DNA from: an uncultured virus (IMG/VR IMGVR_UViG_3300031132_000335) | Lineage: Duplodnaviria; Heunggongvirae; Uroviricota; Caudoviricetes | Virus record (IMG/VR): IMGVR_UViG_3300031132_000335 | Length of the DNA stretch: 64,000 bases | Strand: one strand, 5' to 3' | Part shown: positions 671 through 58,515 of the stretch, one piece after another | Layout: the number at the start of each line of letters is the position of its first letter | How positions within the stretch are numbered: the stretch's first letter is position 1 | Translations under genes and position numbers: made by a program | The notes under the pieces: generated by a model | Database searches by the model: none | The model's input: the letters and a program-made list of their open reading frames with translations, nothing else | What the model was told of the DNA's origin: nothing

Positions 671-819
671 GATGTTCTCCTGTGTCTGTGTGGGAGGCCC
701 TTCCTCCCTGGCGATACCTACTCTACACATGGAGAACAGGCGAGGCAAGCTGTTTTCCAAAAAAGTTTTCTGAGAGCTTCTGGGTTGCGGACGAGTGAGG
801 TGTGTGCTACGGTGAAGGT

Positions 820-1140
820 ATGAGCAAATTCAGCGTGTTTGTCCCGTTCCACGGTCAGCGTGATGTGGTCGCGTCCCGCTTGGCGCACGGGACCCTGTTC
901 GTGACGGATGAGTCGGTCAGCCGTGAGGCGGATGAGTCGGACGTGTGTGCGATTGCGGAGTCCTTCGCAGATGCCTCCCGTCATTTTGAGCGGGGGCTGT
1001 TCGTCTCCGAGGTGGATGGTGCTTACCCGATGGAGGGAACTCCTACGGATGAGAACGAGAACCCTCAGATTGGCTGGGAGGTTGTCCTGTACCTGTCCGA
1101 GGATGAGGAGCCTTGGGCGGATGAGGACGACGAGGACTAA
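820..1140 (+). CDS. acidic hypothetical protein (leaderless)
   Basis: TACGGT-6nt-ATG; MSKFSVF..WADEDDED. Confidence 0.7.
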   Translation: MSKFSVFVPFHGQRDVVASRLAHGTLFVTDESVSREADESDVCAIAESFADASRHFERGLFVSEVDGAYPMEGTPTDENENPQIGWEVVLYLSEDEEPWADEDDED

Positions 1141-1249
1141 CCTGCTTCGCTCTCTCATTTTCTGAGGCTCTCCTAACTGTTCAGGTAGACTGGGCAGTTG
1201 GGAGAGCTTTTGCTTTTCTGTCTCAAAAAGACGAGATTGGTGATGAGCT

Positions 1250-1483
1250 ATGGGATATGAGGACGGACCGACGACAGCTGCGGTTGCTGCGCGGAGTGAA
1301 GCTCGGGCGGGTGTGCTGCTCTCAGTGTGCGCTCTCCTGATTGCAGGGCTGCTGTGGATGAGCTTGACGCTGTGGGATTCCTCCACCACTGTTGCCCTGT
1401 TCCTTGGCATCGGCATTGGGTGGTCCGCAGGGATGGCTATTGGGTGCTTCGTGCGGAGCGCTCGGCTGCGACGACGTAGTTAG
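1250..1483 (+). CDS. small membrane protein
   Basis: Two hydrophobic helices. Confidence 0.55.
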   Translation: MGYEDGPTTAAVAARSEARAGVLLSVCALLIAGLLWMSLTLWDSSTTVALFLGIGIGWSAGMAIGCFVRSARLRRRS

Positions 1484-1653
1484 CTCCTACGTCTCAAAAA
1501 GACGAGATTGACTATGCGTGCTGTGGGAGCAAGAGATGGTTGAGGTAGCTCGGGAAAATTTTTTCGGAGAGGGTTGCGCGGACGGCTGCGGAGTGTGGTA
1601 CTGTTGAGTTCATCAGGGAGGAACAGCCTCCCTCGCACTCTGAGGAGCACATC

Positions 1654-1845
1654 ATGACGCAGATGATTCGCCAGTTCGTTATCACCCTTTGTGGCAACGA
1701 GGATGATGTGAAGGCCGTCAGTGATTCGGAGTTGGAGAGCGTTCTTCAAAACGACCCCACGTTCGCTGGCTTTGACGGTGGTGTTACCGTCTCGCTCTCT
1801 GATGAGCATGTGCAGAAGGGCGAGACCTGGGTCTCTACCTTCTAA
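1654..1845 (+). CDS. acidic hypothetical protein, paralogue of 5778
   Basis: Cassette leader; IRQFVITLCGNEDD motif. Confidence 0.8.
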   Translation: MTQMIRQFVITLCGNEDDVKAVSDSELESVLQNDPTFAGFDGGVTVSLSDEHVQKGETWVSTF

Positions 1846-2057
1846 CACTTCCCGACGAAAGCCCCCAGGATTATCCTGGGGGCTTTCGTATTTCTACGTC
1901 TCAAAAAAGACGAGATTGGAGCAGGGTAGCTGCGAGAGGAAAGACGAGACCAGACTTGGGAAGTTTTTTCTCGGGAAGGGTTGCGCAAACGGCTGGTGCG
2001 TGTGGTAGGTTTGAGTCATCAGCAACCCGCTGAGCATCTGAGAGAGAAGAGACTCCC

Positions 2058-2423
2058 GTGAAGAAGACCCTCATCATTGTCGCGCTGGGCATCGCTGCTG
2101 TTGCGACTCTCACGGGCTGCTCGGCTCCTGCTCCTGCTGCTCCTGGTACGGTGGAGAAGGATGGTGCGGAGGTCTGGACGAATTCAGTGGACACGTCCGT
2201 TGGCGCTGTTGACTGTGTGTTCTACGATGGCACTGAGTCGGCTGCGGTTCAGTGCGACTGGGCAAACCTGGGAAAGGCAACGGCGACGGTTGCACTGAAC
2301 AACGGAGAGGGCAGGGTTGGGGTTGTTCAGCAGACAGTGAGCGGTCACCGCGTGGACTGCGTGACCTATGACTCCACGAAGAGCGGCGGTCTCTCCTGCA
2401 ACCTCCTGGGCGCTCAGAAGTAG
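2058..2423 (+). CDS. lipoprotein
   Basis: Signal peptide with lipobox LTGC; internal VDCVxYD repeat. Confidence 0.75.
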   Translation: MKKTLIIVALGIAAVATLTGCSAPAPAAPGTVEKDGAEVWTNSVDTSVGAVDCVFYDGTESAAVQCDWANLGKATATVALNNGEGRVGVVQQTVSGHRVDCVTYDSTKSGGLSCNLLGAQK

Positions 2424-2553
2424 TACAGCGCTTTCCCCTTTCGGCAACCTCCCAGGAAACTATTCCTCGGGAGGTTGCGTCATGTGTGGGGCGTGTGTAG
2501 GCTTGTCAGTAGGGAGCAATCAAGTTCCCAAAGGATTCTTTCAGGAGGCAATC

Positions 2554-2847
2554 ATGTTCACGACTCAGAAGACGGCGGTTCAGTCGGACTCCATGACAGA
2601 GGAAGAGAAGCTGGACGCTGCTGTGGTACTGTTGGATAAGGCGGCGAAGGCGATGCACCGTGGTGTCATTCTCGTGGTTCTGGGAATTGCTGCGCTGGTC
2701 GCATCTGTTGTTGCTGGGTTCACGGCGGCGGATGATGGGGTGGTCACGTTCCTGACGTGCGCGTACGCGCTTTGCTTCGGCTGTGGCTTGGGAGAGTTCT
2801 GGCGGTCGTCCCGCATGGCGCGCAAGGGGTCGCAGGTCCTCCTGTAA
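2554..2847 (+). CDS. membrane protein
   Basis: AGGAGG RBS; two TM helices. Confidence 0.7.
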   Translation: MFTTQKTAVQSDSMTEEEKLDAAVVLLDKAAKAMHRGVILVVLGIAALVASVVAGFTAADDGVVTFLTCAYALCFGCGLGEFWRSSRMARKGSQVLL

Positions 2848-3036
2848 TCTCAGACAGCCTACTCCCATCTTTCTCGTCTCAAAAAGACGAAAACGAGAGC
2901 AGGAGCTGTCAGGAGGAAAGACGAAAGATTTTTCAAGGATTTCTCCTGTCTGGGGTTGCATCACTCCCCTGATCGTGTAGAGTTGAGTTCATCAGGGAGG
3001 AACAGCCTCCCAGGAACGTCTTCCAAGGAGAACCTC

Positions 3037-3348
3037 ATGTCGCTCATCAGCCGCATCGCCCGTATCGTCTTCCCTCCGATGGAGGACGAGATGCTGGCTC
3101 AGGTTCGCCACGAGAACGACATTCACATGCGGAACAGTGCAGTGCGGCAGTGGATGCGTGAGAACGCTGACCTCCTGCCCCGTCCGACGAAGGATGACGA
3201 GGACCAGCACGAGTGGATGGACCGTTACGAGGATGAAGCACTGCGGCTCTACGTGAGCAAGCCTCTCCCTGGTGTGAGTGCAAGCTGGTTCTACGACTCC
3301 ATCACCCTGTACGCGAAGAATGAGATGTTTTTCTCGCTGATGAAGTAG
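3037..3348 (+). CDS. hypothetical protein
   Basis: Cassette leader; MSLISRIARIVFPP. Confidence 0.8.
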   Translation: MSLISRIARIVFPPMEDEMLAQVRHENDIHMRNSAVRQWMRENADLLPRPTKDDEDQHEWMDRYEDEALRLYVSKPLPGVSASWFYDSITLYAKNEMFFSLMK

Positions 3349-3468
3349 TAAGCTTCCATCAAACTTTCAGGAAGTTTCTGCCTGTCTGGGGTTGCATCGC
3401 TCCCCTGATCGTGTAGTGTTGAGTTCAGTAGGGAGGAATAGCCTCCCGACTGAATGAAGGATTCTCTC

Positions 3469-3675
3469 ATGTTCGCTTACATCATGAAGTTCCTGCCTGG
3501 CGACTACTACGTCCGCACGAGGATGCTGCTGCCGTTCTTTTTCACGGGGCTTGGCCTGGGTGTGGTCGGGTTGGCGGTTGTCCTGTTCGCAGGGTTCACG
3601 GCTCTCCCGTTCCTGGTGCTGCTGTTGGTCATCGGGCTGGTGACTGCGTTCCTGGGTGGAGTGCTGTTGCAGTAG
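3469..3675 (+). CDS. small membrane protein
   Basis: Cassette leader; two TM helices. Confidence 0.75.
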   Translation: MFAYIMKFLPGDYYVRTRMLLPFFFTGLGLGVVGLAVVLFAGFTALPFLVLLLVIGLVTAFLGGVLLQ

Positions 3676-3802
3676 CTTGTCTCAGAAAGACGAAATCTTT
3701 TCAGGAAGAAATTTCCTGTCTGGGGTTGCGGACCGCCCCTGATCGTGTAGTGTAGGTATCACCAAGGAGGAAGCACCTCCTTCCCAATCTTTCGGAGTCA
3801 TC

Positions 3803-4153
3803 ATGTTCACCGAGTACGCGAAGACCCAGTTCGCTCAGTTCCCCTTCTACCACCAGTACGAGGGCATGGAGGTCGGCGCTGAGAGCATGAAGACCGCTCA
3901 GGAAATCCTTGCCAAGGCATCGGGTGATGAGACGGTTCAGACTTTGCACCGAAAGCTCTACGACTTCAAGCTCCGTCAGAACTACGTCCCCGTGGAGTAC
4001 AGCTCGTTCGCTATCCGCAACGCGACGGACGCTGACCTGTTTGATGTGTACCTGATGGATGAGGACAGCCAGTACCTGAACAGCCGTGAGGGTGTGAACC
4101 ACGAGGATGTGGTTCTGGTGGCGGAAAGCCTGATGAGTGAGGTTTACGCCTGA
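3803..4153 (+). CDS. hypothetical protein
   Basis: Variant cassette leader. Confidence 0.8.
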   Translation: MFTEYAKTQFAQFPFYHQYEGMEVGAESMKTAQEILAKASGDETVQTLHRKLYDFKLRQNYVPVEYSSFAIRNATDADLFDVYLMDEDSQYLNSREGVNHEDVVLVAESLMSEVYA

Positions 4154-4262
4154 GGACGTTACCCGAGGTGCCATCCTCTCATCTCAGGGCGTAGGAGCTG
4201 ATTCGTCTCAAAAAGACGAGATTGAATCAGTTCGGGCAGTCGGAAAGACGACAGCTTTTTCT

Positions 4263-4362
4263 CAGGAAGAAACTTCCTGTCTGGGGTTGCGTACCGCCCG
4301 TGATCGTGTAGAGTTGGTATCACCAGGGAGGAACAGCCTCCCTCAAATCTTTCGGAGTCATC
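4263..4362 (+). promoter_or_regulatory. Representative class I cassette promoter/leader
   Basis: CAGGAA(4263)..TTCCTG(4274); -35 TTGCGT 4287; 16-nt spacer ending GATCGTG; -10 TAGAGT 4309; hairpin 4326-4342; GGAG RBS; ATG 4363. Confidence 0.85.
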
Positions 4363-4635
4363 ATGGCGAAGCTCGGCTACTCGGTCCACCACAACTTCAT
4401 GGACGTTCCGTTCACGTTCGCGGGTTGGGTGAAGTCCAAGAAGGACGTGGAGAAGCTCAAGGCTGAGGTGAAGAAGGGCGCTGGCCTGCACTCGTTCGTT
4501 GTCATCCAGGAGGAGAAGCCTGGCTACGTGGTCGGTGGCAACTCCTCGGGCTGGAACCAGAAGCCGCTGACCTACCCCGAACACCTGGTCCGTGAAGCTG
4601 AGGCCGAGCGAGTGCGGGCGTTCTTCGCCGCGTAA
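4363..4635 (+). CDS. hypothetical protein
   Basis: Cassette leader, downstream terminator. Confidence 0.8.
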   Translation: MAKLGYSVHHNFMDVPFTFAGWVKSKKDVEKLKAEVKKGAGLHSFVVIQEEKPGYVVGGNSSGWNQKPLTYPEHLVREAEAERVRAFFAA

Positions 4636-4891
4636 CACCTACCCACGTCAGGAGGGGAGAAGCTATCTTAGGGGGTAGCTTCTCCCCTCCTCTCATTCTT
4701 GCGGGTTCATGGGAAATGGGACAGTTTTTGAACGGTAAAAGCTGAGATGGGGAAGGGCTGTCAGCAGTGTGCAGCTGGTCACCTGAGGCTCAGAAAAATA
4801 GTTTGCTCCTGGTGTTGCGCCACATGCTCTACGTGTGTAGAGTTGAGTCATCAGGGAGGAACAGCCTCCCTCCAAAACTTTCGGAGTCATC

Positions 4892-5170
4892 ATGTTCAGC
4901 ATCTTCGGCAAGAAGCAGAAGCCCGTGTACAACGCTGCTGCTCGCATGGATGAGACGCAGATGGTGCTGAACTGGCTCGGAGACAACAAGTTCAACCTGC
5001 CGATGCCGCAGGACGGGGAGACGAACCAGACGTGGGCGTACATGCACCGCTATGGGAACGCGGCTCAGGCCCTGATGCTGGCTGAGGGTATCCGCCTGGT
5101 CCACACGACGTGGAGCGACCACCTGTACGTCAGCCAGGAGAACCCGACCACGTTGGACGTGCTGGCGTAA
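4892..5170 (+). CDS. hypothetical protein
   Basis: Cassette leader; N-term MFSIFGKKQ. Confidence 0.8.
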   Translation: MFSIFGKKQKPVYNAAARMDETQMVLNWLGDNKFNLPMPQDGETNQTWAYMHRYGNAAQALMLAEGIRLVHTTWSDHLYVSQENPTTLDVLA

Positions 5171-5365
5171 GGAGCCACCTCAGGTCCCACCTGAATGGGA
5201 CAGTTTTTGAACGGTAGAAGCTGGGGAGTCAATCCTCCTTCTCCTGCCGTTCACTCAATTCTCAGGAAGTTTCTTCCTGCCTCGGGTTGCATGTCGCCCG
5301 TGATCGTGTACAGTAAGTAGTATGTATACTGGCGGATTTTTTGACGAGATGGAAGAGTAAGAATC

Positions 5366-5602
5366 ATGGCAACTCCTTGGGTTCTCCCTGAACTGCCGAA
5401 CGGTCTTCGGTGGAAGACAGATGTGCACCGTAATGCGTTCGCTGGTGAAGTCGTCTCCCTCAAAATCATCAAGCGCCAGCGAGTCAACATCATGGGCGTG
5501 AAGCTCCCGTACAACCAGGAAGTTGCGCACGTTGTTACGTACGATGAGCCTGGCTGGGTGCAGGATGAGATTGACCGTATGAGCCAGAAGGTAAACTGGT
5601 AG
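5366..5602 (+). CDS. hypothetical protein
   Basis: Class I promoter upstream. Confidence 0.7.
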   Translation: MATPWVLPELPNGLRWKTDVHRNAFAGEVVSLKIIKRQRVNIMGVKLPYNQEVAHVVTYDEPGWVQDEIDRMSQKVNW

Positions 5603-5777
5603 CTGCTCAACAGCTCAAACTCAACATCGTCTCAAAAAGACGAAGAGTTGAATAGAGAGCTTCACAAAAAGACCACAGGAAGTTTCTTCCTGTCTGGGGT
5701 TGCGCAGCGCCCCTGATCGTGTAGAGTTGAGTTCAGTAGGGAGGAACAGCCTCCCGAATCACTTCAAGGAGAACCCC

Positions 5778-5981
5778 ATGGCTCGTATCCAGCGACAGTT
5801 CATCGTCATCATTGAGGGCGAGCAGGACGACCTCGAAGACCTGATGGATGGTGCGATTGAGGACGCAATCTCCGACTCTCCCGACTTCCCGATGTATGAT
5901 GCAACGGTTGAGGTTCGCTTCGCTGGTGAGCTTGTTCACCGTGACGACCAGGCCGACTACCGCGAGCGCGACGACGACTAA
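5778..5981 (+). CDS. acidic hypothetical protein, paralogue of 1654
   Basis: Cassette leader; IQRQFIVIIEGEQDD. Confidence 0.8.
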   Translation: MARIQRQFIVIIEGEQDDLEDLMDGAIEDAISDSPDFPMYDATVEVRFAGELVHRDDQADYRERDDD

Positions 5982-6143
5982 GCAGTTTCACGACCTTAGA
6001 AAGCCCCGTTAGGAGAACAAGCCTGACGGGGCTTTCGCTTGTTCCAAAAAAGTTTGAGCTGAGGGTTGCATCACTCCCATGATCGTGTAGAGTAGGTATC
6101 AACAGGGAGGAACAGCCTCCCGAAAGCTTCAAGGAGAACCCTC

Positions 6144-6473
6144 ATGACGCAGGTAACGACCACTCAGGCAACGCTCTGGCAGGGTTTCCTCACTGAGGTG
6201 GCGGAGACGCTGATGGATGTCATCGGCATCACGGACAGTGAAGCCGATGCGGTGCAGAGCCTCCCGCAGGATTTCAGCAACTATGCGGGTCACTCCCTGA
6301 TGCTCAACAACGGCAACTCCCGTGGGCCGCAGTACTCGGTTCGGGTGACTCCGTACGGGTACGTGACGCTGGGCAGCCGCTCGCGTCTCAGCGCGCAGCA
6401 GCTGCGGGACCTGACGGAGGCCACGATGTTGCTCACCGCTACGGAGAAGCGTTACCACCAGCACACCCGCTGA
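6144..6473 (+). CDS. hypothetical protein, divergent paralogue of 6670/7489
   Basis: LWQGFLTEVAETL vs LWADYMAEVADTL. Confidence 0.8.
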   Translation: MTQVTTTQATLWQGFLTEVAETLMDVIGITDSEADAVQSLPQDFSNYAGHSLMLNNGNSRGPQYSVRVTPYGYVTLGSRSRLSAQQLRDLTEATMLLTATEKRYHQHTR

Positions 6474-6669
6474 TGACAGTGACAGTTCCGTAGCTCGTGC
6501 GTTCTCTCCGAGCTACGGAACTGTCACTGCTGGTGAAAAAAGACATGAGTTGATAACTCAGATACATCTCAGGAAGAAAGTTCCTGTCTGGGGTTGCACG
6601 CCGCCCCTGATCGTGTAAAGTTGGTATCATCAGGGAGGAACAGCCTCCCTCACAGTCTCGGGAGTCACC

Positions 6670-7020
6670 ATGCAGCAGGTCATCCTCACCAAGGAAATGC
6701 TTTGGGCGGACTACATGGCGGAGGTCGCTGACACGCTGAATGACTTCCTCGGCCTGAGCAAGGAAGAGCACCGCCGCATCACGAAGCTTTCGCAGCCGAC
6801 TGAGTGGAACGTCCAAATCTGGTTGGATGGTGGGAAGGTTTTCACGCCAGCTCAGTACAAAGTCATCGTCCAGGGAAACGGCCTGGTGTTCCTGACAAAC
6901 CTCGTCTACCTCACGTCAGCACAGAAGCGGAACTTCCTTGCAGCCAGGGCGCAGGTGAGGGAGTTCCAGCAGGAATACATGGACAAGCTCCTGTTCATCG
7001 GTACCCGACTGGACGTGTAA
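6670..7020 (+). CDS. hypothetical protein (copy A1)
   Basis: Cassette leader; close paralogue of 7489. Confidence 0.85.
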   Translation: MQQVILTKEMLWADYMAEVADTLNDFLGLSKEEHRRITKLSQPTEWNVQIWLDGGKVFTPAQYKVIVQGNGLVFLTNLVYLTSAQKRNFLAARAQVREFQQEYMDKLLFIGTRLDV

Positions 7021-7210
7021 GTGGGGGCAGGTTCGCCGCCAGCCTCCAAACTACTCGGCACCCTGGACAAGGTAGGTAAACTCTACGGTCTGGGGCTGCC
7101 GGCGATCTTTCAGGAAAAAGTTTGGTTTTGGTGTTGCGCTCGGCACGGAGTCGTGTAGAGTTGAGCCATCAGGGAGGAACAGCCTCCCGAACCACTTCCA
7201 GGAGAACACC

Positions 7211-7378
7211 ATGGCTGCCACCAAGACCGTCAAGTTCCGCGCCACGGCCAACCCCGAGTACGCTGCCGCGATGCGTGGCCTCCGTTCCTCCTCCGCCGCT
7301 TCCCCGCAGGACAACCGTCCGAACCGCCAGCGGACCCGCTCCACCGCGAAGCGCCAGGCCATCAAGAACGGCTGGTAA
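7211..7378 (+). CDS. 55-aa Arg-rich basic peptide, copy 1
   Basis: Hand-translated MAATKTVKFRATANPEY..NRPNRQRTRSTAKRQAIKNGW; cassette leader; not in ORF track. Confidence 0.9.
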   Translation: MAATKTVKFRATANPEYAAAMRGLRSSSAASPQDNRPNRQRTRSTAKRQAIKNGW

Positions 7379-7488
7379 GCCGAACTCTCAGGAAGTTCTT
7401 CCTGTCTGGGGTTGCAGACCGCCCCTGATCGTGTAGTGTTAAGTTCAGCAGGGAGGAACAGCCTCCCGAACAGCTTCAAGGAGTCATC

Positions 7489-7836
7489 ATGCAGCGAGTC
7501 ATCCTCACCCACGAAATGCTTTGGGCGGACTACATGGCGGAGGTCGCTGACACGCTGAACGATTTCCTCGGTCTGAGCAAGGAAGAGCACCGCGCCATCG
7601 CAAAGCTCCCGCGGAACGACTTCAACACCACGGTCCGCATGAACGGCGGCAAGCTGTACAAGCCGTTTGAGTACAGCATCATCATCCAGGGCAACGGTCT
7701 GGTGTTCCTGACGAACCTCGTCTACCTCACGGCAGAGCAGAAGCGCAATTTCTTCGCTGCTGAGGCTCAGGTGAAGGAGTTCCAGCAGGAGTACCTGGGC
7801 AAGCTTCGGCTTGTCGGTAACTACCTGGACGCGTAA
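7489..7836 (+). CDS. hypothetical protein (copy A2)
   Basis: Paralogue of 6670. Confidence 0.85.
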   Translation: MQRVILTHEMLWADYMAEVADTLNDFLGLSKEEHRAIAKLPRNDFNTTVRMNGGKLYKPFEYSIIIQGNGLVFLTNLVYLTAEQKRNFFAAEAQVKEFQQEYLGKLRLVGNYLDA

Positions 7837-12146: not shown

Positions 12147-12385
12147 CACAAGCTTGCAGAGGAGGGAGGAGCTACCAATTCAGGTAGCTCCTCCCTCCTC
12201 TCTTTTTGAGTGGACTGAGCTGGGACAGGTTTTGAGCGGTAGAGCTGGTGCACCTGACTTGCGTCCCGTTCAGTCCGAGTAGGGCTGAAAAAATTGGACA
12301 GAAGTTGACATGAGCTGTCCGAACCATGGTACAGTTGAGTCATCAGGGAGGAACAGCCTCCCGAACCACTTCCAAGGAGAACCTC

Positions 12386-12664
12386 ATGGCTAACCACACG
12401 CAGGACTTCTACGGCACTCCCGACGAGGACGGTCTCACCGTTGAGGGCATCCAGGACGAGCGTTACCTCTCGGATGCCCTGGACGAGGCACACGCGCTGG
12501 ACGCTGAGAACTACTTCGCGCAGGACTCCAACTTTGACGGCATCGCCGAAGACGAGTTCGGGCTTCCCGCTTACGCTCGCATGGACGATGATGAGCAGGC
12601 TGAGTTTGACCAGGCAGCTGAGGACCTGCAAAACCACAACGCCTTCGGCCCTGACTTCCGCTGA
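12386..12664 (+). CDS. highly acidic protein
   Basis: D/E-rich, almost no K/R; class II promoter. Confidence 0.8.
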   Translation: MANHTQDFYGTPDEDGLTVEGIQDERYLSDALDEAHALDAENYFAQDSNFDGIAEDEFGLPAYARMDDDEQAEFDQAAEDLQNHNAFGPDFR

Positions 12665-13802: not shown

Positions 13803-13892
13803 TTAGATGCCCATTTCCTTCATGAGCTTCATGGTGTCGTCATCGAACTCGTCGGTGCGGATGAAGCCGAAGTCGTCGTCGTTGTCGTACAT
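13803..13892 (-). CDS. 29-aa acidic micropeptide, copy 1
   Basis: MYDNDDDFGFIRTDEFDDDTMKLMKEMGI; class II promoter. Confidence 0.85.
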   Translation of the reverse strand: MYDNDDDFGFIRTDEFDDDTMKLMKEMGI

Positions 13893-14034
13893 GAGGTTCT
13901 CCTTGGCTGTTCGGGAGGCTGTTCCTCCCTGATGTATTTAGCCTACCACAGTCCAGAGTGGCTGTGTCAAGCCAAATCAGAAAATTTTTCTGAGGGATCA
14001 GGGTGGGCTGTGATGGGCAGCCCGCCAGAGGGAG

Positions 14035-14292
14035 TTAGAAGCGCAGCCGCGCAGCACGAGCGGCCTGGTACTCCTTCTGCTGCTTCGCTTCCAGGATTCG
14101 CCCAGTGATGCCCGAGGTCAGCCACGAGAGGAAGAAGCTACCGAAACCCACGAGGCAGGAAGAGTAAACCATGGTGGCGGTCTCCGACCAGTCGCCCAGG
14201 TAGGGGTAAAGGAGGAAAACGGAGAGAAGCGTGAGACCAAGACCGACAGCGGGGATGCTGAGGTTGTCTGCGATGCGACCAAGCTTGTCCAT
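14035..14292 (-). CDS. membrane protein
   Basis: Cassette leader; two TM helices. Confidence 0.75.
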   Translation of the reverse strand: MDKLGRIADNLSIPAVGLGLTLLSVFLLYPYLGDWSETATMVYSSCLVGFGSFFLSWLTSGITGRILEAKQQKEYQAARAARLRF

Positions 14293-14470
14293 GGGATTCT
14301 CCTGAGACTGTGAGGGAGGCTGTTCCTCCCTGATGATTCAACTCTACACGACTCCGAGCAGAGCGCAACCCCGAGTTGCTCAACTCAGAGGTTTTCCAGG
14401 TTTCGTCTCAAAAAGACGAAAAGCTCTGTCCTCCTAACAGTTAGGAGGACAGAGCTTTTCGGATGATGCG

Positions 14471-16671: not shown

Positions 16672-16965
16672 TTACCGCTGGACCCGCGCTGCTCCTGCGG
16701 TGATGAGGGAGAACCCACGCTTGAACGTGATGACAGTGGCAGTGATTCCCAGAACGAACGCAGCGACTCCGACGAGGAAGAAACCCACACCCCAGCCAAC
16801 CCCGATGACGCTGAATGCGGCGAGGAGGAATGAGATGGCCATGACGACCCCGATGGGGAAGAGGCTGACGAACGAGAGGGAAGCGATGACGGTCGTCACG
16901 GAGTAGAACGGGTCCGTGATTTTGTAGGTGATGCCAGCCTGGTTGTCAGTGAACGTCGCAGCCAT
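16672..16965 (-). CDS. membrane protein
   Basis: Cassette leader; hydrophobic. Confidence 0.75.
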   Translation of the reverse strand: MAATFTDNQAGITYKITDPFYSVTTVIASLSFVSLFPIGVVMAISFLLAAFSVIGVGWGVGFFLVGVAAFVLGITATVITFKRGFSLITAGAARVQR

Positions 16966-17073
16966 GAGGTTCTCCTTGAAGTGGTTCGGGAGGCTGTTCC
17001 TCCCTGGTGATACCTACTCTACACGATCAGGGGAGGTGTGCAACCCCAGACAGAAACTTTTTCCTGAGAATTG

Positions 17074-21239: not shown

Positions 21240-21368
21240 TCACCACTTCTCTTCCTGCATGTTGACGTTACGGTGTCCGTCCTGCTCGTCGTGGTTGTAC
21301 GAAGAGGTGCAGAGAACGCCAGCGTACTTCGGGTGCGGGGCGAGGCAAACTGCGATGTTGGTGACCAT
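21240..21368 (-). CDS. 42-aa Cys/His peptide
   Basis: MVTNIAVCLAPHPKYAGVLC..; class II leader. Confidence 0.65.
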   Translation of the reverse strand: MVTNIAVCLAPHPKYAGVLCTSSYNHDEQDGHRNVNMQEEKW

Positions 21369-21561
21369 GATGTTCTCCTACGGCTCTTCGGGAGGCTGTT
21401 CCTCCCTGATGAGTACAGCCTATCACGCTCGGAAGTGAGTGTGTCAACTCTACGGATGAATTTTCCTGAGAACTTGGCTGATGTGTTCACGTCTAAAAAA
21501 GACGAAACGTGCTGCGTCCTTTGGAGTAGATAAGACTCAACACGTGGAGGACTAGGAAGGA

Positions 21562-21910: not shown

Positions 21911-22225
21911 TTACGCCTTGATAAGCGCGTTCACACGAGCCTTGGCATCTGCGACCTGCCCAGCGGTGAAGTCAGAGTGTCCAGGGACGATTTCGTACAG
22001 GTCAACTTCGGTGAGGTTGCCGTTTCCGTCCGTGTAGAAGAAGTACTTCATGTTCTGGAAGCGCTCTGCGAACTGGAAGCAGTTGACTCCACGACCACCG
22101 TAGCTTGCACGGTTGGTGAGGCTGCGACGGAAGTCGTACTTCTCCGAGTGGACGAGACCGACCATGCTGAGGATGTCAACCAGCTCGGTGACCGTCTCTT
22201 CGGTGAGGTTCATGTTCTTCGCCAT
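21911..22225 (-). CDS. hypothetical protein
   Basis: Cassette leader. Confidence 0.8.
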   Translation of the reverse strand: MAKNMNLTEETVTELVDILSMVGLVHSEKYDFRRSLTNRASYGGRGVNCFQFAERFQNMKYFFYTDGNGNLTEVDLYEIVPGHSDFTAGQVADAKARVNALIKA

Positions 22226-22351
22226 GGTGACTCCTGAGATTTTGCGGGAGGCTGTTCCTCCCTGATGAACTCAACACTACACGATCACGGGAGCCATGCA
22301 ACCCGAGACAGGAACTTTTTCCTGAGATATTCCTGAGATACGCTGCCTGCG

Positions 22352-26255: not shown

Positions 26256-26693
26256 TCAGCGCTTGCGAAGCTCAGCTTCCGTCATACCCTTCTTGACCGT
26301 GCGCGGGGAGAAGGTGACCGTGCGGGTGTAAGAACGGATGTTGCCCGTAGCGTAGCGACCGATGGCCTTCCAGCTGGCGCTACGCTCGTCGTCCTCTTCA
26401 ATCCAAATGGTGGTCGGCTCACCCTCGTCAAGCTCAGCGTCAGGCTCCGAAGCAAGCACGTCGTATTCGTACTCCCAGACCTCTTCGGTCTTGTTCTGGA
26501 ACTTGTAGTAGTCAGCCAGGGGGGTGAGTTCCCAGCTGTTGACACCAATCTTCGCTCCGACAGGGTTCAAGCCGTTGATGACTGCCGTGATGGTGATTGC
26601 GGCGATTTGAGCTTCGGTGTCCTCGTGACGGATGACGCACTCGTACTCGTTACCACCGATGGTGCGGACGTGGTGGGTGCCGTACTCAGCCAT
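26256..26693 (-). CDS. hypothetical protein
   Basis: Class II leader. Confidence 0.8.
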   Translation of the reverse strand: MAEYGTHHVRTIGGNEYECVIRHEDTEAQIAAITITAVINGLNPVGAKIGVNSWELTPLADYYKFQNKTEEVWEYEYDVLASEPDAELDEGEPTTIWIEEDDERSASWKAIGRYATGNIRSYTRTVTFSPRTVKKGMTEAELRKR

Positions 26694-26890
26694 GAGGACT
26701 CCTTGGGAAGTGGTTCGGGAGGCTGTTCCTCCCTGATGAGTACAGCCTACCACGATTCAGATCAGTGGTGTCAAGCCCCTCGTGTGAAAAAGTTTGAGGA
26801 GGTTGACACCAGCTGGGGTTGTTCAAATCTTGTCCGAAAAAGACGAAATCCCTCACCGTAAAAGACGATGAGGGATTTCGGAGAGAAGAC

Positions 26891-35973: not shown

Positions 35974-36207
35974 TTAGTCCCAGCGGCTAACCCCACGGCT
36001 GCGGAGGTAGGCTTCCCTGTCGCTCAGCGGCGGAAGGCCCTGGGTGGCGCGGGCGCGGTTCGTGTAGTACGTGGCTTCATTCAGCTGTCCCAGGTCAGGA
36101 GCGGGGATGTCCCAGAGCGCGTCCTGGACAACCTCACTTGACGTGCGCGGGTCCTGGAAGTGCAGTTCTGAGTAGTCGGGGGTGGAACGCTTCTTGGTGC
36201 CAAGCAT
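35974..36207 (-). CDS. hypothetical protein
   Basis: Variant cassette leader. Confidence 0.7.
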   Translation of the reverse strand: MLGTKKRSTPDYSELHFQDPRTSSEVVQDALWDIPAPDLGQLNEATYYTNRARATQGLPPLSDREAYLRSRGVSRWD

Positions 36208-36332
36208 GTGAGGCTCCTTCTGAGGTTCAAGGAGGCTGTTCCTCCTTGCTGAACTCAACGTTACCACACCGTGTGCAGATGTGTGCGAACTCCTAGAACT
36301 TTTTCCTGAGAGTTCGTTGGCAAGGTCGGTAC

Positions 36333-52980: not shown

Positions 52981-54081
52981 TTGTCCCAACCTGTCTACGG
53001 CATCGTAAATAGTAACCGCGATTTGACAAAGGAATCATCCTGGGGCAAGAACCAGTTCAATAACTTCATGCCTGTCGCCTTACTGAGTTGGATGAACGAT
53101 AACGATTACACCATTGGTGAAATCAGTCTGACTGACGAGCTAACCCCGAAGAACACTTCACGCATTCCGTCAGAAGTCTTCCCGTATCTGAGCCAGGAGC
53201 ACAAGAACCTCCGCTACGACTTTGAAGCGGAAGCTGACACCTCACTAGTTGACCCGAGCTATCATCTGCGCCATGACTGCGTGGTCAAAAACTTTACGAC
53301 CCAAGAGTCTTTGGCAGCTCTGGAAGTCAAGCTCACAACCTTCCCTGACTTCTCTACCCAGAACCTCCCTAGAGAGCAGATGGGGTCTGAGCTGGTTGTG
53401 CGCCCTGACACTATCGTCGGCATTGCTGACAGTGTAGCCGCACGGAATACGCTAGCTGATAAAGCGCTTGAAGCTGTTCAAAAAGTAGCAGCGTCTGTTC
53501 GTGAAGCAGGTAATGATGCAGCAGCTCAAACAAACCTCCTCCCTTCGGTCCATACTGCGGTGTCAGCTATCTTACGGAACGCTCATAAGCAGCAGAAGCC
53601 CACCCTTCTCCAAGCCATTTGGAACACAATGGGCGAGCAAAACGAGACAGACGGGGTGAAGAACTTCACTGACATCTTCGTATGGACAGACAGCGCTCTC
53701 CTGCACCTCTGCCTAGACGCGAAGCTCACCTCTCTCACGAGGTCCCAGAGGTCACTAGTGTGGTTCCTCCTGATGTGGGATGACGCAGTGCAGAACAAGC
53801 TCATCACTCCTGACTCAGTAATCAACACATTCACCTTCTCCACGAAGAACGACAAAGCGTTCTCTGTTGGTGGGAAGACGACGAACCGCTACTTGCGCAG
53901 TGAAAGGCTTGTAGCTCCGTCCGTGCCAGAGCGAGTCCTCTACAATGACATCACTGATGTGGAGCACATCCGCTATTTGAAGCCTGAGCGCCGGTTAGAT
54001 GCTTGGCTGGACTCCCGAGCTGACTTGTTCGTTCTCCTAGACGACGATGAAGAGGATGAGGTCCTCGGCGAGTTGGAGTGA
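52981..54081 (+). CDS. HindVP-family type II restriction endonuclease (family recognises GRCGYC)
   Basis: NSNRD..SWGKNQFN N-terminus; HD..LEVKLT PD-(D/E)XK core; GSELVVRPDTI; KNDKAF; PERRLDA C-terminus; AGGAG RBS with TTG start. Confidence 0.85.
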   Translation: MSQPVYGIVNSNRDLTKESSWGKNQFNNFMPVALLSWMNDNDYTIGEISLTDELTPKNTSRIPSEVFPYLSQEHKNLRYDFEAEADTSLVDPSYHLRHDCVVKNFTTQESLAALEVKLTTFPDFSTQNLPREQMGSELVVRPDTIVGIADSVAARNTLADKALEAVQKVAASVREAGNDAAAQTNLLPSVHTAVSAILRNAHKQQKPTLLQAIWNTMGEQNETDGVKNFTDIFVWTDSALLHLCLDAKLTSLTRSQRSLVWFLLMWDDAVQNKLITPDSVINTFTFSTKNDKAFSVGGKTTNRYLRSERLVAPSVPERVLYNDITDVEHIRYLKPERRLDAWLDSRADLFVLLDDDEEDEVLGELE

Positions 54082-55617: not shown

Positions 55618-55938
55618 TCAGCGGATGTAGCCAAGCATGTAGTCCACGACGAGCTGGGTTCCCTGCTCCGAGGGACCATCCTCACCCTTCGCCTTCACAA
55701 GGGCTGCCAGCATCACGATGTCATCCTGGGTCTCCACGTGGAGCATCCGCTCGCCATCCTCATCCAGCGCCTTACGGACAGCGGCTGCCTTGCCGTCCAG
55801 ACGAACGTAGTTGGTCATGTCCAGCGACTCGTTGTTACGCAGGGTCAGCAGGTTCTCTTCGGCCGAAGCGAGACGGTTGATGATGTCTTCTCGGAAGAGC
55901 GTGACCTTCGGGTCCTTGGTGTTGATGATGTTTTCCAT
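55618..55938 (-). CDS. hypothetical protein, related to 56041
   Basis: DPKVTLFREDII..RLDGKAAAV. Confidence 0.75.
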   Translation of the reverse strand: MENIINTKDPKVTLFREDIINRLASAEENLLTLRNNESLDMTNYVRLDGKAAAVRKALDEDGERMLHVETQDDIVMLAALVKAKGEDGPSEQGTQLVVDYMLGYIR

Positions 55939-56040
55939 GAGAGTAACTCCTTCTTGGTTTGAGGGAGTCTGTTCTACCCTCTATCTACGATCAGTGTAGC
56001 AGGGTAGAAGCTGGGATGTCCAGCCCTGCTACAACCGTTT

Positions 56041-56382
56041 TTAGTGGCGGTACTCGGAGATGATGTAGTTCGCTTCACTGATACCGCTCATCTTCGCTTT
56101 GTACTCATCGGTGAACCGCTCAGCAAGCGAAAATCCGAAGAATGACATGCGTCCCAGGAGAAGGCTCAGTGGGGCAGACTCGTTGTAACGGTTCAGGTTC
56201 TCCTGGACCTTCTCCTTGACAGCCTCCACACCTGCGACCTTACCGAGGAAGCGTGCACGAGCCTCTACCCCATTGCAACGGTCACGCATCTCAGTCAAAA
56301 GAGCGATGCGCTCATCCAACTTGCCGATGATTTCAGCGCGGAACTTCGTGGCCTTCGGGTCAGCCGTGAGGGTGTCAGTCAT
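56041..56382 (-). CDS. hypothetical protein, related to 55618
   Basis: DPKATKFRAEII..RFLGKVAGV. Confidence 0.75.
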   Translation of the reverse strand: MTDTLTADPKATKFRAEIIGKLDERIALLTEMRDRCNGVEARARFLGKVAGVEAVKEKVQENLNRYNESAPLSLLLGRMSFFGFSLAERFTDEYKAKMSGISEANYIISEYRH

Positions 56383-56442
56383 GAGGATTCCTGTCCGTTA
56401 TAAAGATGAGGAAGCGAGTGCTTCTTACTCAGTGTAACACGG

Positions 56443-56829
56443 TCAACCTGTGGTGGCAACTACTTGGATGGAAATCAGCTTCTTGTCCTCGTTGAAGGTT
56501 AGGTAGTCGCCTTTTCGGGTACGATCCCATTCGGTCTTGCTGAGCTGGTAGGTCTTGTGCTTATCCCCTGCGGTGATGACGACGAACCAACGGTCGGGGT
56601 AGCTGACTTCTTTACAAGCAGAGACTTTGACTGGCCCTCCAATGAGATGACATTCTTTCCCCAGATGAGCTGGGTCGTACCGCTTCTGGGAAAGGACACC
56701 TTCATGGATAGGCTTTGAGGAAACGAAAATGGCGCAGATGATCCCAATGAGAGCTATCAAAGCCAATACCATGACAATGCGGAACTTCCAGTCAACGTCA
56801 GGATCGTAGATTGATTGTTTCTCAGTCAT
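56443..56829 (-). CDS. membrane-anchored Cys-pair protein, paralogue 1
   Basis: TM + G.L..K..PA..C..C..PDRW..GDYLTF. Confidence 0.75.
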   Translation of the reverse strand: MTEKQSIYDPDVDWKFRIVMVLALIALIGIICAIFVSSKPIHEGVLSQKRYDPAHLGKECHLIGGPVKVSACKEVSYPDRWFVVITAGDKHKTYQLSKTEWDRTRKGDYLTFNEDKKLISIQVVATTG

Positions 56830-57217
56830 TGGATGTTCCGATGTTTTTGACAGCTTGCCCGTTGATGCTCGTGAGATGATGGTGCTTGAAGACCAGGTGA
56901 TCGCCTTTGCTTACCTGGTTCCATTCTTGTTGGCTGAGGTCAAAGTTGTTTCCCTTGTCTCCCTTGTTGATGATGACGTACCACTTGTCAGGAGAGTATT
57001 GTGTGCAAGACGTGGGTACTTTACCTGCCATGCAGGTGCCTTTATATTCATGAGCTGCGGAGAAGTTCTTCTCTGTCACTATCCCGTCCTGAGGTCCAGC
57101 CCACAATAAACGCAGTAAGAAGAACAAGCCGATGAGGGCGAACAGCACTGCAAGCAACCTGAGGTTTACTTTCCAGGCAGGGGTAGCGGCTTTTGGAGTT
57201 GAAGTTGTCTGACTCAT
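56822..57217 (-). CDS. membrane-anchored Cys-pair protein, paralogue 2
   Basis: PDKWYVII..GDHLVF. Confidence 0.75.
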   Translation of the reverse strand: MSQTTSTPKAATPAWKVNLRLLAVLFALIGLFFLLRLLWAGPQDGIVTEKNFSAAHEYKGTCMAGKVPTSCTQYSPDKWYVIINKGDKGNNFDLSQQEWNQVSKGDHLVFKHHHLTSINGQAVKNIGTSND

Positions 57218-57461
57218 GGGTTCTTTCGGTGAGACTGGCGAAGGTGTTCAGTCTACCGCAAAAGAAGAAGCTCTCTCATTTTGCAGCAACTAATTATGAA
57301 GGGAGGTAGATGGTGACCAGTCTGAAATGAGACGGAAAATGCATGCAAATGTTGCATTTGTCAGTGGATAGGTGTAAGCTCGCTCATGCAAGACAAAATC
57401 CAACAATTCAAAACGGGGTTACTTGAACGCCCGTCAACAACAACAAGGAAGAAGTAAGACC

Positions 57462-57776
57462 ATGAACAAGGCAACCTATCTTGAAAAGTTCGCTGCTACC
57501 AAGGTTACGGACGACATGACCGTTGGTGCAGCAAAGGTGGCAGAGAAGAACCGAAAGGCGCTGGTGCGCTTTTGGGAGAAGACTGCACGGGCATACATTG
57601 AGAAGACCGAAGGCGTTGACTTTGATGCCATTGAGGTGAACTGGCGTAGAGTCGCCACGAAGGCAAATGCGAACCCTACGGGGGCAGTCACCATTCAGGT
57701 GTTCGCCTGTGACCAGTATCAGGCAGACAAGCTGGAAAAGACGTACCGTGTGAACAAGAACGACCTTTACACCTAA
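57462..57776 (+). CDS. basic hypothetical protein
   Basis: Promoter and AAGGA RBS. Confidence 0.7.
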   Translation: MNKATYLEKFAATKVTDDMTVGAAKVAEKNRKALVRFWEKTARAYIEKTEGVDFDAIEVNWRRVATKANANPTGAVTIQVFACDQYQADKLEKTYRVNKNDLYT

Positions 57777-57918
57777 GAACTGCGAAGAGCGTGACAACCA
57801 GGCATTTCTGGTTGTCACGCTCTTTACTTTTCCTCACCGATCTTGTTGGCTGTGCAACCTGAGGTAAAAAGACAGAGACCTCAGCGAATACAAGCTGAGG
57901 TCTCTGTCTTTGAAAGAA

Positions 57919-58335
57919 CTACTGGGCGTTGACCGAGGTCAGGCTCTCTCCGTCAAAGGTGAGGTAATCACCTTCGTTGATGGTGTCCCACTTGTCCTGC
58001 GAAACCGAGAAGGAGTTCTTGTCGTCATCCTTGGCAATCGTCACGTTCCAGCTCTCAGGGTACGTGACAGGGGTGCAGATGGTGGTCTTACCGTCGTAGG
58101 AGTTGCACTGCATAGAAGTCGTTTCGGGCGTGTGGTCCTTCCCAACAACGCTTCCCTCGTGAATACCGCCCACATGAGCGGAGATAGCAACGATGTAGCC
58201 GACGATAAGGAGTACCGTACTGACCGCAAAAAAAGCCACGAAGCCTCCGATAACGAAGTTGACCTTGTCTTCCTTCCAGGACTCAGCCAGACGAGTGGTG
58301 AGGGGCGGCTTCGGCTTGGTCTGAGTGGCGTACAT
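57919..58335 (-). CDS. membrane-anchored Cys-pair protein, paralogue 3
   Basis: PESWNVTI..GDYLTF; cassette leader. Confidence 0.8.
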   Translation of the reverse strand: MYATQTKPKPPLTTRLAESWKEDKVNFVIGGFVAFFAVSTVLLIVGYIVAISAHVGGIHEGSVVGKDHTPETTSMQCNSYDGKTTICTPVTYPESWNVTIAKDDDKNSFSVSQDKWDTINEGDYLTFDGESLTSVNAQ

Positions 58336-58515
58336 GGTGTTCTCCTTGGAGTAGTTCTACGTGGGAGGCCCTTCCTCCCTGGCGATACCTACTCTACATA
58401 GATGGTTGTCCCTGTGCAACTGTTTTCACGAAAACTTTTCTGAGATTTCCCTGAGAGCGGACGCTGCCTCACCAATTCAGGGCCAGTTGACCACCAGGAG
58501 GGTCTTGCCTACTGC

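Follow-up and report, generated by a model that had tools for sequence, protein, structure and literature searches.

Some 50 small open reading frames (ORFs) in a stretch of DNA catalogued as coming from an uncultured virus (IMG/VR record IMGVR_UViG_3300031132_000335) are each preceded by the same short hairpin. The whole stretch of 64,000 nucleotides (nt) is called the window here, and the array of hairpin-led cassettes within it is the subject of this analysis. The original prediction described about 50 small ORFs, spread from 692 to 58380, behind a common leader of -10 box, hairpin, Shine-Dalgarno (SD) sequence and start codon. The sequence GGGAGGAACAGCCTCCC, with up to two mismatches allowed, occurs 45 times in the window, versus 0.04 occurrences expected from 100 shuffles. 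A covariance model spanning the segment from the -10 box to the hairpin was built from 47 aligned copies (from 22 nt before the hairpin to 6 nt after it) and searched against the window with filters off. It returned 47 matches with E values from 3.7e-14 to 7.3e-8, the next match lying at E 0.011, which bears out the common leader. A 48th copy, at 55963, is degenerate, with three of six pairs, and was missed by the model. The copies are divided between the plus strand (25) and the minus strand (22), with an ORF downstream of every one. The predicted span is correct, yet 46 of the 47 copies are confined to 692-45041 and a single outlying copy lies at 58363-58379; the array has 47 cassettes in about 45 kb, with the module recurring every few hundred bases. 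We read the window as containing a hyperplastic region of about 47 putative expression cassettes, most of them with a single gene. The cassettes are listed below by span, strand, hairpin and ORF (lengths in amino acids, aa), and all except the copy at 55963 are supported by the covariance model. Stems called compensated are changed on both sides with pairing kept.

425..768, minus strand: hairpin GGGAGG-AAGGG-CCTCCC at 692-708; ORF 425-670, 81 aa, with SD
1556..1845, plus strand: hairpin GGGAGG-AACAG-CCTCCC at 1616-1632; ORF 1654-1845, 63 aa, followed by a GC-rich terminator-like hairpin
2935..3348, plus strand: hairpin at 2995-3011; ORF 3037-3348, 103 aa
3371..3675, plus strand: hairpin GGGAGG-AATAG-CCTCCC at 3431-3447; ORF 3469-3675, 68 aa
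3705..4153, plus strand: compensated hairpin AGGAGG-AAGCA-CCTCCT at 3765-3781, 7 bp with the flanking A:T pair; ORF 3803-4153, 116 aa
4266..4635, plus strand: hairpin at 4326-4342; ORF 4363-4635, 90 aa
4794..5170, plus strand: hairpin at 4854-4870; ORF 4892-5170, 92 aa
5679..5981, plus strand: hairpin at 5739-5755; ORF 5778-5981, 67 aa
6045..6473, plus strand: hairpin at 6105-6121; ORF 6144-6473, 109 aa
6573..7020, plus strand: hairpin at 6633-6649; ORF 6670-7020, 116 aa
7112..7378, plus strand: hairpin at 7172-7188; ORF 7211-7378, 55 aa, one of three near-identical copies
7391..7836, plus strand: hairpin at 7451-7467; ORF 7489-7836, 115 aa
7927..8192, plus strand: hairpin GGGAGG-AACGG-CCTCCC at 7987-8003; ORF 8025-8192, 55 aa
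8205..8625, plus strand: hairpin at 8265-8281; ORF 8305-8625, 106 aa
8673..9096, plus strand: TTGACA-type, hairpin at 8733-8749; ORF 8770-9096, 108 aa
9203..9598, plus strand: hairpin at 9263-9279; ORF 9302-9598, 98 aa
9769..10131, plus strand: hairpin at 9829-9845; ORF 9868-10131, 87 aa
10183..10722, plus strand: hairpin at 10243-10259; ORF 10282-10722, 146 aa
10796..11129, plus strand: hairpin GGGAGG-AATAG-CCTCCC at 10856-10872; ORF 10896-11129, 77 aa
11180..11451, plus strand: hairpin GGGAGG-AACAG-TCTCCC at 11240-11256, G:U closing pair; ORF 11278-11451, 57 aa
11476..11654, plus strand: hairpin at 11536-11552; first ORF 11571-11654, 27 aa, call uncertain
12286..12664, plus strand: TTGACA-type, hairpin at 12346-12362; ORF 12386-12664, 92 aa
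13517..13693, minus strand: hairpin at 13617-13633; first ORF 13517-13594, 25 aa, call uncertain
13803..13989, minus strand: TTGACA-type, hairpin at 13913-13929; first ORF 13803-13892, 29 aa, call uncertain
14035..14390, minus strand: hairpin at 14314-14330; ORF 14035-14292, 85 aa
14471..14812, minus strand: hairpin at 14736-14752; ORF 14471-14713, 80 aa
14992..15499, minus strand: hairpin at 15423-15439; ORF 14992-15402, 136 aa
15555..15803, minus strand: hairpin at 15727-15743; ORF 15555-15707, 50 aa, GTG start
16672..17064, minus strand: hairpin at 16988-17004; ORF 16672-16965, 97 aa
20896..21161, minus strand: TTGACA-type, hairpin GGGAGG-AACGG-CCTCCC at 21085-21101; ORF 20896-21063, 55 aa, the third copy
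21240..21466, minus strand: TTGACA-type, hairpin at 21390-21406; ORF 21240-21368, 42 aa
21562..21868, minus strand: hairpin AGGAGG-AACAG-CCTCCC at 21792-21808, terminal A.C mismatch; ORF 21562-21771 or 21562-21783, start ambiguous
21911..22322, minus strand: hairpin at 22246-22262; ORF 21911-22225, 104 aa
23438..23855, minus strand: compensated hairpin AGGAGG-AACAG-CCTCCT at 23779-23795; ORF 23438-23755, 105 aa
23895..24202, minus strand: hairpin GGGAGG-AACAA-CCTCCC at 24126-24142; ORF 23895-24104, 69 aa
24299..24648, minus strand: hairpin GGGAGG-AAGGG-CCTCCC at 24572-24588; ORF 24299-24544, 81 aa, GTG start
26256..26793, minus strand: TTGACA-type, hairpin at 26717-26733; ORF 26256-26693, 145 aa
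29176..29640, minus strand: hairpin at 29564-29580; ORF 29176-29541, 121 aa
30152..30542, minus strand: hairpin at 30466-30482; ORF 30152-30445, 97 aa
32803..33192, minus strand: imperfect hairpin GCGAGG-AACAG-CCTCCT at 33116-33132, five of six pairs; ORF 32803-33093, 96 aa
33744..34150, plus strand: doubly compensated hairpin GAGCGG-AACAG-CCGCTC at 33804-33820; ORF 33842-34150, 102 aa, LRV repeat
35974..36306, minus strand: compensated hairpin AGGAGG-AACAG-CCTCCT at 36230-36246, 8 bp with flanks; ORF 35974-36207, 77 aa
38966..39334, plus strand: compensated hairpin GAGAGG-AACAG-CCTCTC at 39026-39042; ORF 39062-39334, 90 aa
39379..39702, plus strand: hairpin at 39439-39455; ORF 39478-39702, 74 aa
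41669..41935, plus strand: hairpin GGGAGG-AACAG-CCTCCA at 41729-41745, terminal mismatch; ORF 41768-41935, 55 aa
44677..45101, minus strand: hairpin at 45025-45041; ORF 44677-45003, 108 aa
57919..58439, minus strand: outlying copy, hairpin GGGAGG-AAGGG-CCTCCC at 58363-58379; ORF 57919-58335, 138 aa
55618..56040, minus strand: degenerate hairpin GGGTAG-AACAG-ACTCCC at 55963-55979, three of six pairs; ORF 55618-55938, 106 aa, missed by the model

An alignment of 142 nt around 48 copies confirms the order of the leader elements and extends the conserved unit to a module of about 110 nt. From 5' to 3' the module comprises an A/T-rich inverted repeat, a pair of boxes of the form TTG-N16-19-TAnnnT, the hairpin, the SD and the start codon. 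The A/T-rich stretch is often an inverted repeat of the CAGGAA-N4-TTCCTG type. Across the 48 modules, the columns that are invariant or at least 90% conserved are GTTGC, which is nearly invariant upstream of the spacer, TG before the -10 box, CA before the stem, and the stem and loop themselves. The -10 box is TAGAGT in 21 copies, TAGTGT in 10 and another variant in 17, and the spacer from TTG to the -10 box is 16 nt in 27 copies, 17 nt in 8 and 19 nt in 10, with TTG absent in 3. Two promoter-like types can be distinguished by the boxes and their spacing, TTGC with a spacer of 16 or 17 nt (35 copies) and TTGACA with a spacer of 19 nt (10 copies), and the hairpin and its distance from the -10 box are the same in both. 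That distance, from the end of TAnnnT to the hairpin, is 10 or 11 nt in 47 of the 48 copies scanned, and the interval ends in a conserved CA-n-CA. Downstream of the hairpin the consensus is GAACCACUUCAAGGAG, in which there is no U-tract; a leader of about 10 nt runs to AGGAG and then to the start codon (ATG in 45 copies, GTG in 2), which lies 18-27 nt past the hairpin in 46 of 47 copies, the outlier having an ambiguous start. The flanks of the hairpin are asymmetric, with CA on the 5' side and GAA on the 3' side, and the loop is in the sense orientation relative to the ORF in all 47 copies.

The boxes resemble a promoter of the sigma-70 family, from which promoter activity is predicted. A hidden Markov model of the promoter part alone finds 32 sites in the window, 30 of which are followed by the hairpin. 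The two without it, at 5287-5325 and 51339-51375 (both plus strand), the second of which retains an AACAA remnant, are perhaps cassettes that have decayed or have no hairpin, and would offer natural controls. In the TTGC type the -35 box is enclosed by another short stem, GGGG...CCCC or CGGG...CCCG (for example at 7405-7425 and 8220-8240). Complementarity of its outer pair holds in 57 of 76 unique copies, versus about 35 expected from allele frequencies. Many cassettes end in long GC-rich hairpins with T-runs; others, such as those with ORFs at 3037-3348, 7211-7378 and 8025-8192, run into the next module without a terminator of their own.

The genes behind the modules are small, with a median of 90 aa and a range of 25-146 aa, three very short calls being uncertain. 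They had been called unrelated, which is true for most: 38 of the 48 cassette proteins are singletons, and the rest fall into four small paralogue groups. A basic protein of 55 aa is encoded three times with 96-100% identity (7211-7378 and 8025-8192, plus strand; 20896-21063, minus strand), each time behind a module of its own. Matches to PHROG were obtained for 6 of 100 window proteins, all of them weak except two, and Pfam matches above the cut-off were limited to HindVP, DUF6919 (40668-41258) and LRV/HEAT repeats in two small proteins. The restriction endonuclease of HindVP type, encoded at 52981-54081 on the plus strand, is full-length (Pfam E 8.7e-65, profile positions 1-332 of 332). The window contains no tRNAs, and as a whole it has no matches in Rfam; a 2-kb stretch with five modules gave one Rfam match at chance level (E 0.16). 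No recombinase family was found among the window proteins scanned, a scan that did not cover every ORF.

Base pairing of the hairpin is strongly maintained. Among 282 stem cells in the 47 window copies, 98.9% form standard pairs, whereas registers slid by one to three columns are 44-68% paired, and none of 500 shuffles reaches the observed covariation score or percentage paired. The four stem variants that had been named in support of preserved pairing are all present (at 3765, 39026, 33804 and 36230, at most one position from where they had been placed), as is the loop that always begins with AA, in 47 of 47 window copies. Within the window, two-sided changes occur at three of six pairs (6 cells). 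The window and related contigs were also scanned in a stem-blind manner, for stems of 6 bp, fully paired and of any sequence, that enclose a 5-nt loop and have TG/TAnnnT and TTG upstream and an SD and start codon downstream. This yielded 142 unique copies, versus none in reversed sequences: 124 have the canonical stem, 4 contain a G:U pair and 14 are changed on both sides (AGGAGG/CCTCCT in 7, GAGCGG/CCGCTC, GAGAGG/CCTCTC and GGAAGC/GCTTCT in 2 each, and GGAAGG/CCTTCC in 1). The two-sided changes affect pairs 1, 2, 3, 4 and 6, or five of six. Given that the copies belong to one repeat family and are related, counts of cells overstate the number of independent events, and the five pair positions are the safer figure. 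Copies with broken pairs appear under looser criteria, with up to five stem mismatches. The loops of the window copies are AACAG (37), AAGGG (3), AACGG (3), AATAG (2), AAGCA (1) and AACAA (1), and two others, AGCAG and GAACG, account for 4 of the 142 unique copies and occur in related contigs.

Conservation was compared between orthologues by anchoring window modules to contigs of 95-98% identity through 150 nt of coding sequence. Sixty-seven ungapped orthologous pairs were used, and 68 were set aside whose upstream 135 nt could not be aligned without gaps. Differences are found at 7 of 804 stem positions, 7 of 335 loop positions and 85 of 3484 positions between -52 and -1, such that the stems change more slowly than the promoter (Fisher p 0.004). 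The base-paired hairpin is under selection, and it is probably conserved beyond the needs of pairing. It is also the minimum-free-energy structure in all seven leaders that were predicted, variant stems included, with the SD left open. The stability of GGGAGG-AACAG-CCTCCC we take to be about -12 kcal/mol.

The modules are also the places at which related genomes differ. Parts of two contigs, of 883,042 bp and 878,612 bp, and numerous short contigs are 95-98% identical to the window, and alignments to these related strains break cassette by cassette. Other strains carry an extra cassette at modules 4326 and 5739, where the single window module aligns to both of the modules that flank the extra gene. 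One strain lacks a tandem two-cassette unit between modules 6633 and 7451, and two of the three copies of the 55-aa gene sit in this duplication. A contig of 13.7 kb switches partner at nearly every module. A breakpoint was counted at each distinct internal alignment end, and the interval from -85 to +40 relative to the hairpin was counted as module. On this basis 31 of 54 breakpoints fall in modules, which make up 13.7% of the aligned window (binomial p 6.6e-14), in agreement with the earlier suggestion that the repeat serves as a recombination handle. This pattern matches shuffling mediated by promoter-stem-loop (PeSL) elements, and it also fits any exchange of module and gene as a unit. That the array has a cassette architecture with gene shuffling at the modules is very likely. 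Joints between Logan contigs from four DNA runs were considered as proof of recombination or mini-circles and rejected: contigs end at nearly every module and joints link different modules, and since the repeated module breaks the assembly graph, such joints prove neither. One further difference between strains lies at a (CTC)n microsatellite at about 9640-9696, after the terminator of cassette 9263, with breakpoints at 9655 and 9689.

Polymerases of the sigma-70 family usually initiate 6-8 nt past the -10 hexamer. The geometry of the -10 box would therefore place the start site 4-5 nt ahead of the stem, on the conserved CA, and given that the -10 box ends 10-11 nt before the hairpin, the hairpin is predicted to lie within the first 21 or so nt of the transcript. 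We consider it likely that the hairpin is part of the RNA. In the mechanism that we propose, transcription would begin about 4 nt ahead of the hairpin, on the conserved CA, and every cassette message would thus open with the same stable stem-loop while its SD stays unpaired. The 5'-terminal hairpin would shield the message against pyrophosphate removal and against attack by RNase E or RNase J that depends on the 5' end, and this protection would raise and equalise expression of the cassette genes. The repeated module of about 110 nt would at the same time provide homology for deletion, insertion, duplication and swapping of single genes. For E. coli mRNAs, one report describes stabilisation by 5'-terminal stem-loops and a need of RppH for unpaired 5' nucleotides (PMC3997798). 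We hold with middling confidence that the array consists of PeSL-like promoter-leader cassettes in which the hairpin caps the 5' end and the module supplies homology for shuffling; that stabilisation is the main role of the hairpin is a more tentative proposal, a little short of even. The cassette genes are probably expressed early.

Several observations weigh against this proposal. Both the start site and the promoter activity are predicted rather than mapped. An E. coli-consensus promoter scan of 1-17500 passes over the module boxes and returns 5 sites against 5.4 expected. Most -35 boxes are TTGCAT or TTGCGC, which match the consensus at three of six positions (TTG only), and ten copies have the 19-nt spacer. 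One-sided transitions leave a G:U pair in about 7 contexts and disrupt pairing in about 10; because there is no clear G:U bias, covariation cannot separate an RNA fold from a DNA fold, or sense from antisense. Finally, with 38 of 47 window stems identical and 37 of 47 loops AACAG, the hairpin is more uniform than a structural stabiliser needs. Diverged contigs in which the -10 consensus has moved from TAGAGT to TATAGT, the genes are different and the pre-stem sequence is CAGCA, unlike in the window, keep the same hairpin, which points to sequence-specific recognition; the related loci were fetched by an exact 19-mer, however, which inflates conservation outside the window.

The uniformity of the hairpin is best accommodated by the main rival to 5'-end stabilisation, in which a trans-acting factor of the element or its host recognises the hairpin as an RNA tag by its sequence, so that some 50 early messages are switched together and stabilisation is secondary. 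The factor could be a translational repressor, a nuclease or nuclease-protecting protein, or an antiterminator. Besides the near-identical stems and loops with their invariant AA in the window, this explanation draws on the slow change of the stems in the coding-anchored orthologues, on the persistence of the hairpin where the -10 box has shifted, and on an information content of about 1.8 bits per position in the hairpin versus 0.6-1.1 in the promoter and leader in two diverged clades, a contrast biased by the way in which loci were found with the 19-mer. Compensated stems such as GAGCGG/CCGCTC and GGAAGC/GCTTCT are tolerated, however, and thus most stem bases are not read individually. Gene conversion within a repeat family could make the copies uniform without any reader, almost all window proteins are without a family, such that no candidate binder can be named, and the AACAG loop is unlike the GNRA-like pentaloop of lambda boxB. 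We regard a trans-acting reader as possible but unlikely. Less probable again is its strongest form, in which an invariant GGGAGG-AACAG-CCUCCC would serve as the dedicated recognition tag for early messages, about 50 in number, in a phage-like replicon of some 0.8-0.9 Mb, and through it one factor would time, protect or silence them all.

Two more specific RNA roles were rejected. The boxB site of lambda has a 5-bp stem with a GNRA-like pentaloop, GAAAA or GAAGA, a boxA nearby and long operons downstream; a nut/boxB site of this type was set aside for the cassettes given their AACAG, AACGG, AATAG and AAGGG loops and their mostly single-gene units, many with terminator-like hairpins of their own, no search aimed at boxA or N-like proteins having been made. 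In an anti-SD switch, the CCUCC of the 3' arm would pair with the SD (-7.9 kcal/mol when the 5' arm is absent), but the SD is unchanged at 33804 and 39026, and because it stays constant in copies with an altered 3' arm, the switch was dropped.

The inverted repeat could instead act as DNA, as a 17-bp dyad (6-5-6) to which a dimeric protein, repressor or activator, would bind at about +5 to +21 of all cassette promoters. Its size and symmetry are typical of operators, its position just past the -10 box would suit a roadblock, and one-sided changes show no bias toward the sense strand. In addition, two reports describe repeated 17-18-bp inverted repeats before start codons in actinophages: 34 copies of TGTTCGGNNNCCGAACA, a 17-bp palindrome, in Cluster O mycobacteriophages (PMC4351075), and an 18-bp inverted repeat in Cluster EG Microbacterium phages, along with SAS-ESAS motifs in Clusters EF and K (PMC7302621). 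Such motifs resemble the window hairpin in occurring as tens of 13-18-bp copies, 14-30 bp before start codons and in short intergenic gaps, and the ESAS core 5'-GTAGAG resembles the GTAGAGT of the window -10 region. They have no sequence similarity to the module, however, and none is reported in the available text to lie in a promoter module of about 110 nt or to show compensatory stem changes. The Cluster O repeats are, by contrast, described there as invariant, not oriented with transcription and in one third of cases inside genes (PMC4351075), and the SAS motifs as overlapping the ribosome site itself (PMC7302621). In the module, the symmetric double changes by which complementarity is retained, seen in 14 of 142 unique copies and at five pair positions, fit a fold and not two identical half-sites, and the flanks and the 5-nt centre are asymmetric and oriented with transcription in 47 of 47 copies. 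A DNA operator is accordingly improbable.

The stem-loop might otherwise act on read-through from upstream, as an attenuator, terminator or processing site that insulates the cassettes from one another, and this we consider slightly less probable than an operator. Downstream lacZ was lowered by the stem-loop of PeSLs to an extent similar to that seen with a strong terminator (PMC2839356), several window cassettes reach the next module without their own terminator, and read-through RNA is predicted to form three hairpins across the module. But long GC-rich hairpins with T-runs already close many of the cassettes, and insulation gives no rationale for the fixed distance of 10-11 nt from the -10 box. 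As judged from the sequence, a terminator or attenuator role was rejected for a stem of only 6 bp that has no U-tract and stands at that fixed distance inside its own transcript. A count of hairpins after stop codons (39 of 47 cassettes, at -15 kcal/mol or lower within 90 nt) was not used, as hairpins of the next module fall inside the interval.

Least likely is that the hairpin hitch-hikes in a spreading promoter-leader repeat, or that it is part of a hairpin-type promoter of the kind known from phage N4, used by an RNA polymerase of the element with a start downstream: the copies are paralogous and recombining, so that concerted evolution could explain their uniformity, and the upstream boxes are not called by the E. 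coli-type scan, but compensatory changes and the lowest substitution rate in the stems indicate selection on the fold, the TTGC-N16/17 and TTGACA-N19 types share the hairpin at the same distance, and TTG and TAnnnT are kept at sigma-70-type spacing. A 5'-end stabiliser thus remains the best supported explanation, with the trans-acting reader as its main rival.

Promoter/stem-loop cassettes are the best-documented route of accessory-gene gain and loss in large lytic phages, and the likeness of the array to PeSLs that had been noted is upheld. In the original reports, PeSLs consist of a strong sigma-70-like promoter, an AT-rich upstream region, a stem-loop of G and C tracts, an SD and a start codon; 51-52 of them are present in each of the phages RB49 and phi1, where they precede ORFans and mediate indels (PMC2839356), and PeSL cassettes are described for the T4-type phages RB49/phi1, PST/T4 and nt-1/KVP40 (PMC2839356, PMC4122927). 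Excised cassette mini-circles and a T4-type myovirus as carrier are further marks of PeSL systems. The window shares with PeSLs a composite repeat of about 100 bp, built of A/T-rich DNA, sigma-70-like boxes, a stem-loop of G and C tracts, an SD and a start codon, a number of about 50 copies per genome clustered ahead of small ORFans, and indels or replacements between close relatives that end within the repeats. The scale of the window array, which had been thought to lack precedent, is therefore not exceptional. PeSL stem-loops differ in that they take five positions with respect to the promoter, in most cases between the boxes or overlapping them, vary in sequence and have been shown to terminate upstream transcription; the window has one near-fixed hairpin and loop, without a U-tract, at one place 10-11 nt past the -10 box. 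The second G4/C4 stem around the -35 box is closer to the classical PeSL stem-loop. The window module shares no sequence with any phage record searched, and its carrier is not recognisable as a T4-type phage. What stands out relative to PeSLs is the regularity of the module, the conservation of the hairpin across diverged genomes and the very large carrier, and the array takes a PeSL-like design far beyond the T4 group, into uncultivated elements with almost no recognisable genes.

The preferred reading of the hairpin as a 5' cap has its own precedent in the stabiliser stem-loops at the 5' termini of ompA and papA messages, which were reportedly described by Emory, Bouvet and Belasco in 1992 and by Bricker and Belasco in 1999. 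Those stem-loops likewise leave a separate, unpaired SD downstream. They are features of single genes without a shared sequence, whereas about 50 genes of the window share a hairpin with a conserved loop, at a 5' end that is predicted. Because natural compensated and broken variants exist, the array is a clean system in which to study the contribution of a leader hairpin. Integron attC cassettes were also considered and rejected. Integron cassettes are promoterless, co-oriented, separated by imperfect palindromes of 57-141 nt and accompanied by an integrase, and the window cassettes have promoter-like boxes of their own and lie on both strands.

The original prediction also placed the array in an actinophage, which is not supported; none of the searches points to an actinobacterial host. 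Twenty kb of the window, searched in near mode, had no nucleotide match among 50,697 INPHARED phage records, and one module searched in distant mode gave a match at chance level only (E 0.09). The sole actinophage match was weak and antisense: tblastn with the 55-aa protein found Microbacterium phages of about 190 kb (E 5e-4 to 1e-2), but in A3Wally the match is antisense to an annotated gene, and it was not counted. The left end of the A3Wally genome (about 195 kb; 409-18549 of the record) is a run of small genes without known function, with intergenic repeats (6 copies of 27 nt and 5 of 35 nt) unrelated in sequence to the window module. Two small window proteins have weak matches in jumbo phages, at 24.6% identity to Eldridge and 32-34% to SCTP-2 and XacN1. 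An ORF of 436 aa matches only its own strain variants among 5.8 billion proteins, and nothing in phages.

The 19-mer of the hairpin has no matches in IMG/VR and 14 single-copy matches in 185,579 GTDB species genomes, from unrelated bacteria, which were taken as chance. It is present in multiple copies in Ga0308161_1000006 (883 kb, at about 71-137 kb), Ga0308164_10000004 (879 kb, at about 279-392 kb), Ga0308164_10000007 (789 kb, at both contig ends) and contigs of 70, 62 and 13.7 kb, and related modules are also found in Ga0265797_10000002 (791 kb) and Ga0265780_10000410; the contigs of 789 and 791 kb are the more distant relatives. The hairpin and array are common to at least three diverged lineages. 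In the two contigs of about 880 kb the array lies in the same orientation about 210 kb apart, which would fit a circular or permuted genome. The contigs of 0.79-0.88 Mb, which come from plant-surface metagenomes, are absent from IMG/VR and from the GTDB species genomes, and a search of the literature on giant phyllosphere phages found nothing on them. No hallmark phage gene was found in the DNA examined, and a restriction enzyme and a ParA-like ATPase are the only recognisable functions in about 110 kb of visible DNA. The array may be carried by a giant phage or a plasmid-like element, or it may belong to an island of a small bacterial genome; if these contigs are phage genomes, they exceed the record of 735 kb, the largest phage genome cited in a 2026 review (PMC13282480). 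The sequence is contained in 24 sequencing runs, none recorded as RNA, that are labelled as phyllosphere, leaf litter, plant and straw metagenomes, and the 19-mer together with the covariance model provides a marker for tracking gene flux across metagenomes.

Other short repeats are found among the cassettes. A GCCC-TTCG-GGGC hairpin with TGATC follows several stop codons and often leads into the next module (10135-10160, 10726-10750, 11133-11160, 21880-21910, 23870-23895 and 24270-24298). A short intergenic hairpin of the CGTCTC-AAAAA-GACGAG type occurs in both orientations, at about 1900-1925, 4215-4240 and 34215-34240 and, reversed, at about 13495-13515, 14395-14415 and 21470-21495, and the related sequence AAAAAAGACATGAGTTG is found at about 6530, 10775 and 12720.

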